From a virus (Duplodnaviria; Caudoviricetes), in IMG/VR virus record IMGVR_UViG_3300011008_002712: a DNA stretch of 64,000 nt; one strand, written 5' to 3'. Shown one piece after another: positions 3,314 to 20,226 of the stretch. The first letter of the stretch is position 1, and the number at the start of each line of letters is the position of its first letter. The notes under the pieces were generated by a model that did no database searches, was not told the origin of the DNA, and was given only the letters and a program-made list of their open reading frames with translations. A program made the position numbers and the translations under genes.

Positions 3314-4306
3314 ATGATAAAAGTATCAGAACTTACTCAAACACCAGATAACAAATATATTTGTCCTTATTGCCAAAAAATATATAGCAAGCATGGAATT
3401 GCTACTCATATTTGGAGAAATCATACAGAAGAAGGCAAAAATTTTAATCCTGATTCTAATAGAGGCTATAGAGATGGTACTAGAACAGTTTGGAATAAAG
3501 GATTAACGAAAGAAACTAATAAAAGCGTTGCTAAAATTGGTAAAACGCTTACAGAAAAATACGCTACTGGAGAAATTGTTAGTAATTGTCATAAACATAC
3601 AGAAGAAGCAAAAGAAAAAATTAGACAAGCAAGAAAGAAAACTCTGTCTAAAAAAGGGAAAATGCCTAATAAGAAAAAATCTTGTTATGAAAACCGTATT
3701 CTAAGATTGTTAAAAGAAAACAATATACAAGAAAATTATGTCAATAATTACAAGATTTCTTACAAAGAAGAAAAAACTAAAACATATTGGTATGACATAG
3801 CTTTTCCTGATTTATTACTAGACATAGAAACAGATGGCTGGGAACATGAAATTCAAAATCATGTTGAAAGCGATCAGTACAGAGATTATTTAAGTATCAA
3901 ATATGGATGGAATGTACTAAGACTCAAAAATAAAGAAATAAAAGACTGGAGCGACAATCAACTTTTATCAGTTATTTTAGATGAAATTGAGAAAGCAAAA
4001 GTTGACATAGAAGAACGAAAATTAAAGTATGAAAAAAATCCATATCTGCATAAGAAAAAATCTAAGACTATAGAACAAATAAAACAAGAGCGCATTAAAC
4101 TCGCTAAAGAACGTGTAGAAAAAATAAAAAAAGCTAATATTGATTTTTCTGCTTGGAAATGGCGTGCAAAAGTAGCTGAGATATTAAATATATCTCCACA
4201 AAAAGCCGCTAATTTTGTTAAAAAATGGATGCCAGAAATTTATGAAACATGCAAAAAACATTCAAAAAAAGGAACCCTAATGGGGTTCCTTGTTATTTTT
4301 TGGTAG
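3314..4306 (+). CDS. Putative homing endonuclease (C2H2 zinc finger, NUMOD3-like motif, DUF559/Vsr-like nuclease domain)
   Basis: CPYC...HIWRNH; KHTEEAKEKI; YDIAFPDLLLDIETDGWEH...DQYRD...GWNVLRL. Confidence 0.75.
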   Translation: MIKVSELTQTPDNKYICPYCQKIYSKHGIATHIWRNHTEEGKNFNPDSNRGYRDGTRTVWNKGLTKETNKSVAKIGKTLTEKYATGEIVSNCHKHTEEAKEKIRQARKKTLSKKGKMPNKKKSCYENRILRLLKENNIQENYVNNYKISYKEEKTKTYWYDIAFPDLLLDIETDGWEHEIQNHVESDQYRDYLSIKYGWNVLRLKNKEIKDWSDNQLLSVILDEIEKAKVDIEERKLKYEKNPYLHKKKSKTIEQIKQERIKLAKERVEKIKKANIDFSAWKWRAKVAEILNISPQKAANFVKKWMPEIYETCKKHSKKGTLMGFLVIFW

Positions 4307-4377
4307 GGGCGGTGGGAGTTGAACCCACGACTTCCGGCTTATAAGGCCGATACTCTGACCTGCTGAGTTACACCCCA
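4301..4377 (-). tRNA. tRNA-Ile(TAT)
   Basis: Anticodon arm TCGGC-CTTATAA-GCCGG; T-arm GTGGG-TTCAACT-CCCAC; A73 plus CCA. Confidence 0.9.
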
Positions 4378-7295: not shown

Positions 7296-7301
7296 GTATG
7301 A

Positions 7302-7376
7302 ACACGGAGGCATGATTCGAACATGCGATCTTTAGCTTATTAGGGCTAATGAGATAGGCCTCTTCTCCACTCCGCG
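7302..7376 (-). tRNA. Atypical tRNA-like gene (fMet-like body, 8-nt anticodon loop, no encoded CCA)
   Basis: CGCGGAG/CTCCGTG acceptor; GAGA/TCTC D-stem; TTAGC-CCTAATAA-GCTAA; GCATG-TTCGAAT-CATGC. Confidence 0.7.
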
Positions 7377-7377
7377 T

Positions 7378-7548: not shown

Positions 7549-7622
7549 TGGTGACTCCGCCGAGAGTTGAACTCGGATAGATTGATTAAAAGTCAACTAT
7601 GCTACCATTGCATCACGGAGTC
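7549..7622 (-). tRNA. tRNA-Lys(TTT)
   Basis: Anticodon arm GTTGA-CTTTTAA-TCAAT; encoded CCA. Confidence 0.92.
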
Positions 7623-7641
7623 TTTAATTGATTACATATAT

Positions 7642-7670
7642 ATATTACCATAAAACTTTGGTTTTGTAAA
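7642..7670 (-). promoter_or_regulatory. Promoter TTTACA-N17-TAATAT (TG-extended) at the head of the tRNA cluster
   Basis: Hexamers with a 17-nt spacer just upstream of tRNA-Lys. Confidence 0.65.
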
Positions 7671-7710
7671 CAGTTTTATTTAAAATTTCAATATTTTTTG
7701 CAATTCAAAT

Positions 7711-11888: not shown

Positions 11889-12878
11889 TCATGTCTGCTT
11901 TGAGTTTTCTATAGCTTCTATCTCCTGCTGCAATACTTTTATCTCAGCTGTTAAATCCATTGTGTCATTGCTTGTTATTTTATCATATTCTTTTTGATAC
12001 AGCAATGACATCTTTGACAATGTTTCTCTTATTTCTTTTAATAAAATCTTACTCTTGTTGTGGCTAGTCATATTATTCATGTCAATATATTTTTCAGTTA
12101 TATTTAACGTGTTTTCTTGATATATATTGACAAAAGTAGTACATAATCCAATTTGCTCAGGATGCTCTAACAAATATTCGTGCATTTCTTTGCTCATCTT
12201 AACAAGTTTTTTGATATTATTAGCTACACCACCATCTAACTTGTTAATCAATTTTTCTAATGCAATATTATCTTTTTTCATCTTGTCCATCAATAATTTT
12301 GAAAAATCATTCTGCTCTATTTCTATAGCTGGGTTTTTTTCTTCCAATATCTTATAATTAGACAAGAATTTATCAAATAATCTTGAATATCTGTTTATTT
12401 TGTTCGTACCTCCAAGTAATACCAAATATTTATAAAGGATTTTTGTAGATACTATGCATGGCAAGATAGTAAAAAATATCATGATAATAATAGAAACAAA
12501 TGTAATGGGAGAAAAAAATGAATATAACATCAAACATAAAAAAGGCAAAAATGTCAAAATATAGTAACAACCAAGAAATATGTTTTTCTTTTTCCTCAAT
12601 TTCAATACTTTAACACAATAGCTATTCCATTCATTAATGCAATCTATCGGATCGCTAAACCATTTTTTTTCACGCAGTATGTTATGCATCTTATCAGAAT
12701 AATTACATTGTACTCTAAAATTTTCTTTATTTGTATATACAAGGCTCAAACCTTTTCCATCTACTGGACAAACTTCACAAAATGCTACATTATTTTCTTC
12801 AGCAATTTCTTTTAAACTGTCTATGCTCATCATATGTTTTTTATCATTAATAGCAGGCATTTCATCAAACAACATCAT
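11889..12878 (-). CDS. Membrane protein with XpaC-like (5-bromo-4-chloroindolyl phosphate hydrolysis family) C-terminal domain
   Basis: Two transmembrane segments; FVNIYQENTLNITEKY...DTMDLTAEIKVL pattern. Confidence 0.6.
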   Translation of the reverse strand: MMLFDEMPAINDKKHMMSIDSLKEIAEENNVAFCEVCPVDGKGLSLVYTNKENFRVQCNYSDKMHNILREKKWFSDPIDCINEWNSYCVKVLKLRKKKNIFLGCYYILTFLPFLCLMLYSFFSPITFVSIIIMIFFTILPCIVSTKILYKYLVLLGGTNKINRYSRLFDKFLSNYKILEEKNPAIEIEQNDFSKLLMDKMKKDNIALEKLINKLDGGVANNIKKLVKMSKEMHEYLLEHPEQIGLCTTFVNIYQENTLNITEKYIDMNNMTSHNKSKILLKEIRETLSKMSLLYQKEYDKITSNDTMDLTAEIKVLQQEIEAIENSKQT

Positions 12879-13058
12879 TACATATCACCACCTTCTATTT
12901 AATTATAAATTATAATTGCAAAAATGTAAATAGTAAAAATAAATCCTTATAAATTAGATAAAATAAATTATTAATTAAGTAGCAACAAAAGTGCTACTAT
13001 TTAATTAAATTTTTATCGATCATGGCTTTCTCCATTTAATTCGCGTATAAGATTTTTC

Positions 13059-14432
13059 TTATATGCGATTTTTTTCTATTTGTATTTTTCTTTGTTTTAA
13101 TTCTTCTAGATATTCCAATGCTTCTTCTTTATTTACTTCTTCATTATAACTTTCCATATATTCTTTGTGTAAATCAATAATTGGTTGAAATAATTCATTT
13201 TCAAATTGTATTAATAACTCATCATCGAAGTTACACTTATTATAAATTTTTTCTATGTTACCAGGAATTTCATGTTCCAAAGAATATTTTTGATATTCTT
13301 TCGTCTTATTAAAAATTCCAAGATTATACTTAAAGAAAATAGAATCTTTTTCTACTCTAATTATAAAAAGAAACCTTCTATAGCTTTGATCTTTGTTTTC
13401 ATATACCTGTTTATTATCTTCATATTTAGAAATTACTAACTCATCTAAAAAATCTTTATCATTTTGCGGACCACATATAATGTTAACTTCATTGCACAAT
13501 CTCATTCTTCCATATTTTACATTTTGAGAAATATCTTTTGGGAAGATATCGAATATATTATAAATGTTTTCTATGCTTCCCAAATTATTAATTAATGTAT
13601 CACTTCTATAATCATCCCATAGTATGATTGGTTGACCATCATATGAATCAAAAGATATACCCTTAGAATTTATTACAAAGTATTTTTCTTCTTCTTTTAT
13701 AAGATCGGAATGGAAATTTCTAATTAACATCCTTGACAATGATTTGCTTATTAATCCTTTTCCAAATCCACTATTCCCATATACATAATAATTTATTCTT
13801 ACTTTCGGAAGAGGAATGTTCCTTAAAACATATTCTTGCCTCATTCTATTCAACATATTCATATCATCTGAATAGTAATGAGGATATCTTTCTATGACTT
13901 GATTGATTGACATTCCATCATAAAGTACTAATTCTCTAACGCGTCTTTTGCTAGTTTTTGTCATTCTTTTATTTTCATTAATAAAATTATACCTATCTAT
14001 TGATTCTCTAAAATTAAAATTAGATTTTACTTCTGAATCTGAATATAAACATTTCTTTTCATCATTTTCATGAAGTATGTATTTTACATTCTCAACAAAC
14101 CCATTTCTTCCTTTAATAATTTTAATAAAATTTTGCTTAACATTAAACCATCTAGATATAATACTAACTGCTAATGCTCTAGTTGTTAATTCTATTATTA
14201 CATGATAATGTTTTGGCTTTAGCGTATCTTTTTTATGTAATGGATTTTTTATTTCATCTTTTTCTGAATATGTATCTTTGTCATGCAATATATATACATA
14301 CCTTTTTATCATTTTGTGTTCTAATGCTTCTTTTATCTGTTCTTCTGAAAATAATTTTTCTTTTGTTTCTGGATGCTCAACATATTGAGCTATATGAAAC
14401 ATTTTTGCTTTCTGATCTTCGATCATATCCAT
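13059..14432 (-). CDS. Rolling-circle HUH Rep (Rep_2-like) fused to an SF3-type helicase
   Basis: LHDKD...KPKHYHVII (HUH motif 2); VKYILHEN (motif 3); Walker A GNSGFGKG; FDSYDGQPIILWDD (Walker B). Confidence 0.8.
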   Translation of the reverse strand: MDMIEDQKAKMFHIAQYVEHPETKEKLFSEEQIKEALEHKMIKRYVYILHDKDTYSEKDEIKNPLHKKDTLKPKHYHVIIELTTRALAVSIISRWFNVKQNFIKIIKGRNGFVENVKYILHENDEKKCLYSDSEVKSNFNFRESIDRYNFINENKRMTKTSKRRVRELVLYDGMSINQVIERYPHYYSDDMNMLNRMRQEYVLRNIPLPKVRINYYVYGNSGFGKGLISKSLSRMLIRNFHSDLIKEEEKYFVINSKGISFDSYDGQPIILWDDYRSDTLINNLGSIENIYNIFDIFPKDISQNVKYGRMRLCNEVNIICGPQNDKDFLDELVISKYEDNKQVYENKDQSYRRFLFIIRVEKDSIFFKYNLGIFNKTKEYQKYSLEHEIPGNIEKIYNKCNFDDELLIQFENELFQPIIDLHKEYMESYNEEVNKEEALEYLEELKQRKIQIEKNRI

Positions 14433-14880: not shown

Positions 14881-14903
14881 ACTCCAGCTCATATGAGCTG
14901 GAG
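14881..14903 (-). terminator. Intrinsic terminator downstream of tmRNA
   Basis: CTCCAGCTC-ATAT-GAGCTGGAG plus a T-run on the minus strand. Confidence 0.75.
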
Positions 14904-14948: not shown

Positions 14949-15278
14949 TGGAAGTGAGGAGAATTGAACTCCTGTCCGAAACAGTTTTAAAACAAACTTT
15001 TATCGTGATAGACTATTTATGTCAGTCAGACGAAGAAACGATTTTCTTAGCATTTGTTGTTCTAACAAAGCTTTGCTTCAAAAACTATCTACGTTTATTT
15101 AAAACTTCAGTGCTCACTCGTAGATGGTGCTTTCTGAAGAGCTGATTGATCGTCAAAGACGATCAGGCAGCAATTGCGTACTCTTCGTTCGCAGTTATTG
15201 TTTTTGTTTGTGCTTAAGCATTTCACCCATGCCACGAAATTTGTTTTTCCACTACCCCGTCGAATCCCTTACACTCCC
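14949..15278 (-). ncRNA. ssrA: tmRNA, tag peptide ANEEYAIAA* (15163-15192)
   Basis: 5' GGGAGTGTAAGGGATTCGACGGGG; 3' GGACAGGAGTTCAATTCTCCTCACTTCCA; G3:U70 pair; ATAACT-GCG resume context. Confidence 0.95.
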
Positions 15279-15279
15279 A

Positions 15280-15397
15280 TGGTGGATAGATCCCTTATCT
15301 GCGTCGTCGATGGATTTTAATCGCATTTCTATGTTCAACTAAAACAAGAGGATATCATTATTTTAGCCTCCCACATAATATGCTAGCAGAACTACCC
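15280..15397 (-). ncRNA. Unidentified ~118-nt structured RNA ending in ACCA, 1 nt upstream of tmRNA
   Basis: 5' GGGUAG pairs with 3' CUAUCC-A-CCA; inner stems UCUGC/GCAGA and CUAAAAUAA/UUGUUUUAG. Confidence 0.55.
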
Positions 15398-15425: not shown

Positions 15426-15454
15426 ATTATAACACATGTCAAGCAATTTGTAAA
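15426..15454 (-). promoter_or_regulatory. Promoter TTTACA-N17-TATAAT (TG-extended) for the ncRNA-tmRNA unit
   Basis: Hexamers with a 17-nt spacer. Confidence 0.75.
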
Positions 15455-18942: not shown

Positions 18943-20226
18943 TTATAAATGTTCAATGACATGATTGACTATATTAACTGGAATGTTATAAATTTTTGCG
19001 ATAATAACCGTTGAGTTATTATTTTTGAATAACGCTATAACATTATACGGTGTCAATATTTTCCTTGCATCATGAATCTTATCGATTGTTTGTTCAATAT
19101 CATGGATTTTATCTTGGTCGATACTGATGCCATACATAGCAATCTCAAACAAAGATTTTCCAGTAACGAAAGACAAGTCGTGCAAGTGTATATTATATTT
19201 TTCGCAAAATTCGTGTGCGTTATAAGATACTTTTTCTATTGGCTGGATTTGCCGAGTATCTTCTTTTATATCTTGTTCGTTGTTTTCAATAGAAACATAA
19301 TCAGTCTCTTCTTTTGTTTCCTCGTCATCATCTCCAAAACTAACATCATCAAGGCAAATATCATTAACTTCTTCATTATTTTCTGTAGGAATGTTGTCGA
19401 TTTCTTCTTGATCTTCATAATATTTTGAGAGAGCAAAAGAAGAAAATTTAGTTTTAATATTATACTTTTTTAAATTAAGCGTAATATTTTCTTCAAATGT
19501 GTCAAACAATTCACACAATTCTTTTAAAGAATATTTTTCTGAAATTGCATCTCGAAGTTCATTTTCATTGAGCCACTTGAAAGCTTTTATGGTTCTTCCA
19601 ATCCCTCTGCGATTAAGCAGTGATGCCAAACTGGCAGACGTGACATTAAGAGAGTTTGCAAAATCTTCTACCTTAGAATAATGTTTAAACATATCAATTA
19701 ACTTTTTACGAGACATAAAAAGTAAAGTGTTTTTACTACGACCTTCTTTAATGCCATGAGACTTCAAAAATTTATAAATATTGTTTTTACTGATATTAAA
19801 ATGCTCAGCAATTTCTCTTGGCTTGATTTCTGGATTTTCAAGAACAAACCGCCTGATTTCTTCTATTTTTTCATTGCTATAGCCTTTGCGAGTTGCTTTG
19901 TTTTCTTCGGCTTTTTTCTGCAATTCTTTAATTCTTTTCCAGTCATAATCATAAACACCATCATCATGACGGAATAAAAATTCTTGCTGGTTCTTTGAAT
20001 ACCATCTTCTTACTCCGGCTTGATTTGCAATGACAATAATATTGTCAACATTGCAATTGCTTAGATCTCCATCTTTGTGAATAACTCGCTCATTGTTTTT
20101 CAAAGTGCGATTAAGAATTTGTTGTGCAACAAGACGATGTTTCATGATTTTTCCGCTTGATTCTTCACACCCAGGCAAATTATAAGGAGCATCAGCATAC
20201 TTGTTTTTTCCTGTTACTATACGCAT
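18943..20226 (-). CDS. Degenerate HNH N-terminus plus multiple HTH-like repeats; probable DNA-binding protein
   Basis: HRLVAQQILNRTL...VIHKDGDLSNCNVDNI; REIAEHFNISKNNIYKFL. Confidence 0.6.
   Translation of the reverse strand: MRIVTGKNKYADAPYNLPGCEESSGKIMKHRLVAQQILNRTLKNNERVIHKDGDLSNCNVDNIIVIANQAGVRRWYSKNQQEFLFRHDDGVYDYDWKRIKELQKKAEENKATRKGYSNEKIEEIRRFVLENPEIKPREIAEHFNISKNNIYKFLKSHGIKEGRSKNTLLFMSRKKLIDMFKHYSKVEDFANSLNVTSASLASLLNRRGIGRTIKAFKWLNENELRDAISEKYSLKELCELFDTFEENITLNLKKYNIKTKFSSFALSKYYEDQEEIDNIPTENNEEVNDICLDDVSFGDDDEETKEETDYVSIENNEQDIKEDTRQIQPIEKVSYNAHEFCEKYNIHLHDLSFVTGKSLFEIAMYGISIDQDKIHDIEQTIDKIHDARKILTPYNVIALFKNNNSTVIIAKIYNIPVNIVNHVIEHL

Follow-up and report, generated by a model that had tools for sequence, protein, structure and literature searches.

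An uncatalogued family of CCA-ended RNAs of about 110 nt, apparently kept among the tRNA genes of Bacillota phages

Sequence comparison points to a family of RNAs of about 110 nt, uncatalogued and absent from Rfam 15, whose genes apparently sit among the tRNA genes of Bacillota phages. Very probably one of its members is a predicted 118-nt RNA encoded on the minus strand at 15280..15397 of the 64,000-nt stretch of phage DNA analyzed here (the window). In total, 20 loci representing 16 distinct sequences of 108 to 118 nt were found in two distant groups of carriers, namely jumbo phages resembling phage G and phages whose terminase is nearest to those of Enterococcus and Geobacillus phages. The paired ends covary between copies, all copies terminate in an encoded CCA, and the RNA is independent of the tmRNA gene that it adjoins in the window.

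Genomic setting and anatomy of the 118-nt RNA

The window belongs to a single virus record of 416,024 bases (29.7% G+C), a jumbo phage whose tail sheath is 41% identical to its counterpart in Bacillus phage G and whose close relatives are present in sheep and goat gut sequencing runs. On the minus strand at 1687-2928, the phage encodes an S-layer-homology domain fused to a porin. This protein presumably resembles OmpM, the major outer membrane protein of Negativicutes, and suggests a host within that class. The gene for the 118-nt RNA opens the tRNA region, downstream of genes encoding a peptidyl-tRNA hydrolase (Pth) and a 118-aa ORF that adjoins the RNA gene and has a single close homologue. 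A sigma-70-type promoter with an extended -10 TG is predicted at 15426..15454 on the same minus strand, matching at 11 of 12 positions as the original prediction had placed it and leaving a predicted leader of about 22 nt; its hexamers are identical in a relative, with three substitutions in the spacer. Downstream, with only one base (15279) between the CCA of the RNA and G1 of the tmRNA (15278), lies a one-piece tmRNA (14949..15278, minus strand; tag ANEEYAIAA). It would share the predicted transcript with the 118-nt RNA, not as an obligate partner, and an intrinsic terminator predicted at 14882..14903 (minus strand) would end that transcript. The tmRNA lacks an encoded CCA, which is no puzzle, since the phage G tmRNA lacks it likewise and the 416-kb genome encodes a PF01743 nucleotidyltransferase (CCA-adding/poly(A) polymerase family). 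No genes for SmpB, Ro60, or AlaRS were found in the 416-kb genome.

Other features of this region were also recorded. Directly 3' of the tmRNA (14948-14905, minus strand), 16 nt repeat its T-stem and acceptor 3' strand in inverted orientation. This copy, kept in the relative L004, could sequester the tmRNA 3' end in the precursor and also resembles a decayed second tmRNA 5' end. A gene encoding a rolling-circle Rep origin-binding domain fused to a helicase domain (13059-14432, minus strand) is inserted between the tmRNA and the next conserved gene and is absent there in the related contig L104. Unusual isoleucine tRNAs are encoded at 7300-7377 and 4301-4377, with anticodon AAU and no encoded CCA, and with anticodon UAU. 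A hairpin repeat of 50 to 60 nt, which starts with GGCAUA, continues with a pyrimidine run, has a variable loop, and ends in CGCC or CGCU, occurs four times in the 416-kb genome, twice just upstream of tRNA genes; minus-strand copies lie at 7436-7385, 6137-6080, and 4753-4705 of the window, with another at G000 C1:320699. This repeat also occurs in two related phages (L103 12344-12470 and L104 about 19010-19075), gave no Rfam match to an E value of 1, and could be a processing or regulatory RNA.

All of the features described in the original prediction were confirmed. The 5' strand of a terminal acceptor-like stem, P1 (15392..15397), pairs with its 3' strand, which is followed by a purine discriminator and the encoded CCA (15280..15289); from 15397-15392 with 15289-15284 the pairs are G-C, G-C, G-U, U-A, A-U, and G-C, and A-CCA follows at 15283-15280, all on the minus strand. 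P1 thus has 6 bp, compared to 7 bp in a tRNA acceptor, and is the sole GGG...UCC-ACCA terminal stem of 6 bp or more in the 416-kb genome when both strands were searched for spans of 60 to 200 nt. A conserved 5' motif (15384..15392, minus strand) comprises G6, an unpaired U7, the 5' strand of an inner helix, P2, and U13-A14. The conserved 3' motif (15295..15308, minus strand) comprises a junction GAC, the P2 3' strand, and a UAA that opens a one-sided loop of 7 to 9 nt. The 5-bp UCUGC/GCAGA helix is present, as is the 9-bp stem, which belongs to a 13-bp hairpin in the variable middle (15337..15368, minus strand; pair probabilities 0.77 to 1.0). A second small hairpin in the variable middle (15305..15325, minus strand) appears lineage-specific and has weak support: a single contig of run X2 replaces one G-C pair by A-U and one U-G pair by C-G. 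Neither a T loop nor a cloverleaf is present, and both ARAGORN and the Rfam tRNA models were silent.

The G+C content of the RNA (39%) equals that of the tmRNA, the flanks having 20 to 24%, and its folding energy does not stand out from that of shuffled sequences (z = -1.04; 26 of 200 shuffles folded at least as well). Rfam 15 returned nothing above curated thresholds for the 118-nt RNA. The sole subthreshold overlap, with the permuted tmRNA RF04321 (32.6 bits against a cut-off of 47), was due to the 5' half of the tmRNA, and a permuted two-piece tmRNA was rejected as the tmRNA here is whole, in one piece with its own T arm. The 6S-like identity that had been offered as an alternative was also discarded: 6S RNA is a rod of about 160 to 200 nt with a central bubble between two long helices, whereas the present RNAs span 108 to 118 nt, their helices are too short (closing helices of 6 and 5 bp, hairpin of 13 bp), and no 6S match was obtained in Rfam to an E value of 10.

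Homologues in distant phages and covariation

A close homologue (L004/L005) is 93% identical to the 118-nt RNA. None of its eight substitutions falls in the terminal stem or the inner helix, and two turn G-U pairs of the 13-bp hairpin into Watson-Crick pairs, a divergence insufficient by itself to prove selection. A model built from these two copies gave its best, weak match (E = 0.71) in G001, a phage genome of 504 kb whose sheath is 85% identical and whose region upstream of the tmRNA is different. The matching sequence, intergenic and 109 nt long, closes with a terminal stem of 7 bp followed by G-CCA and has a terminator of its own; it lies 5 kb from the tmRNA on the opposite strand, between protein genes and with no adjoining tRNA.

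The 20 fixed positions common to the 118-nt RNA and the G001 copy were then used as a search pattern over IMG/VR, the pattern demanding the CCA itself but no pairing. It returned 32 viral matches: the G001 seed, 15 with a perfect 6-bp terminal stem in register, and 16 without, the chance of a 6/6 terminal stem being about 0.4% per pattern match. A second, differently relaxed pattern added two further loci. Altogether, 17 loci, each with a perfect 6-bp terminal stem and RCCA, belong to a distant group of human-gut phages (carrier contigs of 65 to 201 kb). All 17 lie within tRNA clusters and start 0 nt after a CCA end. ARAGORN called the upstream neighbor a tRNA-Pro in three cases; in the rest, the neighbor is a gene with a canonical T arm and CCA that ARAGORN did not call. 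This uncalled gene (L213 about 7560-7701, L212 8269-8410, L229 about 1285-1424) looks like an enlarged, non-cloverleaf tRNA-like gene. The homologue in L209 likewise drew no tRNA call from ARAGORN or Rfam. G032, the single gut carrier analyzed in full, uses genetic code 15 (coding fraction 0.90 versus 0.47), and its terminase shares about 52% identity with Enterococcus phage terminases and 48% with that of Geobacillus virus E3, affinities that point to a different phage group with Bacillota hosts.

Across 14 aligned sequences, pairing in the terminal stem reaches 100%, and five of its six pairs show compensatory changes; P2 is 98.6% paired. Overall pairing is 99.3% with compensatory change in 6 of 11 pairs, compared to 31 to 60% pairing in slid-partner controls. 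Because the gut group shows covariation on its own, the signal does not arise from the alignment of distant seeds. Invariant or almost invariant are the G6-C pair, the unpaired U7, inner-helix pairs 8 to 11, U13-A14, the GAC just 5' of the P2 3' strand, the UAA just after that strand, and the CCA; the invariance of these core letters is partly built in, because most were demanded by the pattern. Six positions that the first pattern left free also agree between L004 and L213. Elsewhere the sequences diverge: the middle is a variable hairpin region, P2 pair 12 is seen as C-G, U-A, and A-U, pair 3 of the terminal stem is G-U in 2, G-C in 8, and A-U in 10 of the 20 loci, and pairs 1, 2, 4, and 5 also vary. 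The terminal stem has 6 bp in the family, 7 in some members, and is followed in 20/20 loci by a purine discriminator (A in 17, G in 3) and CCA, as in a tRNA acceptor end.

These comparisons bear on the claims made from the window alone. The original prediction had held that the region would be only a tmRNA leader if relatives lacked a conserved terminal stem or CCA; they were searched for both, and both are kept, making it a distinct conserved RNA gene and not a disposable leader. The claim of a tRNA-like RNA gene therefore stands as far as its tRNA-like ends and their conservation are concerned, and falls as to alanine specificity and companionship with tmRNA. The alanine set of G3:U70 and A73 is present in the 118-nt RNA (G1-C, G2-C, G3-U, and discriminator A), and alanylation of this copy may occur but looks lineage-specific. 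As the point of the RNA, alanine identity and tmRNA partnership both fail because neither G3:U70 nor tmRNA adjacency is conserved; two complete carrier genomes encode neither tmRNA nor Pth.

How firmly the 118-nt RNA belongs with the gut-phage copies was assessed with a covariance model built from the latter alone. When 84 kb was searched, the G001 copy ranked first (23.6 bits, E = 0.016) and the 118-nt RNA ranked sixth (14.9 bits, E = 1.1), both with exact boundaries, and a sequence-only HMM recovered neither. Sequence identity between the groups is 51 to 62%, and about three independent lineages are represented, because the 17 gut loci form one related group. Membership of the 118-nt RNA is thus supported less firmly than is the gut-phage family itself. 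We nevertheless consider a common origin very likely, because a motif taken from the 118-nt RNA predicted covarying, CCA-ended RNAs elsewhere and because the free positions match (L004/L213), as do length and placement in a tRNA cluster. A set of 10,006 viral candidate RNAs (PMC10690425) may already include the gut-phage version without annotation.

Other searches delimited the distribution of the family. Exact-sequence scans for the element or the tmRNA 5' end returned nothing in viral or metagenome contigs, and the only blastn matches to isolated phages were short ones, due to chance or to T arms. A metagenome scan based on Pth was dominated by distant matches (34 to 45% identity), and the phage relatives reached via Pth held no copy near that gene. 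No match was obtained in phage G, six terminase-related isolates, one uncultured 485-kb phage, T4, or T5, and no cultured carrier of the family was found. Six GTDB matches to one strict pattern all lacked the stem and were dismissed as chance, and a pattern of CCA followed by tmRNA matched only permuted tmRNAs. Permuted tmRNA genes with an intervening segment of only 4 to 5 nt were seen in two viral contigs (L001 3117-3427 and L003 9411-9727). In the related jumbo phage L104, a tRNA-Gly sits before the tmRNA in the place of the RNA. Its tRNA cluster contains G+C-rich non-coding stretches at 12265-12500 and 12930-13100, likely further unannotated RNAs, for which no Rfam match was found to an E value of 1, and a tRNA-Met-like gene at 12600-12666 that has lost its T arm and kept its acceptor stem and ACCA. 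In L056 (G001), a promoter-like site followed by two long hairpins, unrelated to the 118-nt RNA, lies about 60 to 270 nt upstream of the tmRNA.

Proposed role and rival explanations

From its position, the RNA would be transcribed like a tRNA cassette and cut at +1 by host RNase P, a cut that in the gut phages would also release the upstream CCA; in the window, a cut at tmRNA G1 followed by trimming of one base would free the CCA end of the 118-nt RNA. Bases 1 to 12 would pair as stems of 6 and 5 bp on either side of one unpaired U, together matching the acceptor and T stems of a tRNA in length. This is the distance that RNase P and CCA enzymes measure, and the RNA probably displays the upper half of a tRNA-like shape with no anticodon. 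The break in the helix would lie on the 3' strand, a mirror of the tRNA arrangement. The acceptor letters vary freely, which argues against selection for one synthetase, and the fixed letters of the core argue for a protein-binding surface or a tertiary fold. Hence, we tentatively favor, as a reading that may well be right while falling short of probable, a mostly uncharged mimic of the acceptor arm that would serve as ligand or decoy for a protein gripping the core near the CCA end, probably a host factor. One candidate target, by analogy, is the set of phage-defence enzymes directed against the CCA ends of tRNAs, among them toxic small alarmone synthetases (PMC11559606) and MenT-type nucleotidyltransferases (PMC10435456). 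Were the RNA indeed a decoy for such tRNA-end-attacking enzymes, it would constitute RNA-based counter-defence. A bolder form is quite unlikely, namely a tRNA top-half mimic of new topology, in which a 12-step helix broken on its 3' strand and a fixed junction replacing the elbow would be common to unrelated Bacillota phages and would act there, uncharged, as decoy for a defence or stress sensor of the host that acts on tRNA CCA ends. The evidence fits alike a decoy and an RNA whose tRNA-like ends serve merely for maturation.

In the latter case, the ends would be a handle for maturation or stability, and the core might sit in a ribonucleoprotein with a phage protein such as the DUF2828/vWA protein, in the manner of Y RNA and Ro60. 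Conservation that resides in the core and not in the acceptor end accords with such a particle. Likewise, the 416-kb genome and each of the 17 gut carriers have a DUF2828 gene, 14 control cellular genomes have none, and the encoded protein has a vWA-type C-terminal domain; Ro60 also has a vWA-type domain. We still regard this explanation as somewhat unlikely. The complete G001 genome has the RNA and no DUF2828 or TROVE match, G005 (possibly a partial genome) has DUF2828 and no RNA match, the two genes lie tens of kb apart, and the 17 co-occurrences represent one lineage. A single-sequence structure model of the DUF2828 protein reached a pLDDT of only 37. An aminoacylated carrier or synthetase decoy, alanine-specific in the lineage of the 118-nt RNA, is improbable. 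Minihelices carrying the G1-C, G2-C, G3-U, and A set are alanylated by bacterial AlaRS, and this set is shared by the 118-nt RNA and its close relative; however, their 93% identity means that the agreement says little, G3-U occurs in only two of the 20 loci, pairs 1 to 5 and the discriminator vary, and the stem has 6 bp. Neither AlaRS nor Ro60 was found in the carriers tested.

That the RNA merely aids processing, as an RNase P substrate that releases or protects the end of a neighboring tRNA or tmRNA and has no later function, would fit its position directly next to a CCA end in 17 loci and to the tmRNA 5' end in the lineage of the 118-nt RNA. Yet the G001 copy has its own terminator, and its neighbors are protein genes, not tRNA genes; moreover, an invariant inner core would be needless, making this very improbable. 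We also doubt that the 118-nt RNA is unrelated to the gut-phage RNAs, its motif being convergent or due to chance and the gene itself a tRNA gene in decay or the structured leader of a tmRNA. Its weak score when left out of the model and a folding z-score of -1.0 accord with this view, and the decayed tRNA gene of L104 (12600-12666) keeps stem and CCA. Against it, a motif from the 118-nt RNA led to covarying CCA-ended RNAs in distant phages, and neither Rfam nor ARAGORN detected a remnant of a D, anticodon, or T arm.

Comparison with known RNAs

The tRNA-like domain of tmRNA and tRNA-Ala have the same G1-C, G2-C, G3-U, and A set with CCA as the 118-nt RNA. Unlike them, the 118-nt RNA has no T arm, D-loop analogue, or tag frame, and the identity set is not family-wide. 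YrlA Y RNAs, which are bound by Ro60, are likewise about 110 nt long, with paired ends, a variable middle, and conserved bases near the terminal stem, but the 118-nt RNA has no Rfam match and lacks T and D loops. To our knowledge, YrlA has no free CCA acceptor end. No Ro60 (TROVE) gene was found in G000, G001, G032, or G033. Theta ribozymes, minimal HDV-like ribozymes of often recoded gut phages, start directly at tRNA 3' ends (10.1101/2023.06.13.544163). HDV-like ribozymes fold as a nested double pseudoknot. In theta ribozymes, G1, the first base, marks the site of cleavage, and the first helix is closed internally, whereas base 1 of the present family is G, A, C, or U and, by inspection, its first strand pairs with the 3' end before the CCA.

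The nearest known RNA in anatomy is RNAI of phage T5 (rnaI, 107 nt, AY543070), annotated as a 'stable RNA with unknown functions'. It resembles the 118-nt RNA in length and in its place in a phage tRNA cluster; its ends likewise pair into a terminal stem, here followed by GCCA, and it too has no T arm beside the stem. It differs in lacking both conserved motifs, in giving no match to models R2 and R3, and in its host, E. coli. The species 2 and species 1 RNAs of T4 (rnaD and rnaC) are stable RNAs of 119 to 139 nt from the tRNA cluster and of unknown function (PMC9697503, PMC12685909). rnaD adjoins tRNA-Arg and its gene ends in ACCA. They have no motif in common with the family and no model match, and rnaC has a canonical T arm, the 118-nt RNA none. 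No literature treating T5 RNAI or the T4 species RNAs together with RNase P was found.

Like these RNAs, members of the family are encoded in phage tRNA regions, have paired ends and a CCA, and form no cloverleaf; the family is placed like the stable RNAs of the T4 and T5 tRNA clusters and, as far as the sequences allow, is likened to them in working, as a separate sequence family. T4 and T5 have long been known for tRNA-sized stable RNAs from their tRNA clusters, and the same kind now appears in Bacillota phages, spread between very distant phage groups and with a small invariant core set apart from a freely varying acceptor stem. This core, together with the natural variants, gives the exact bases to mutate, so that the function of such RNAs becomes testable.
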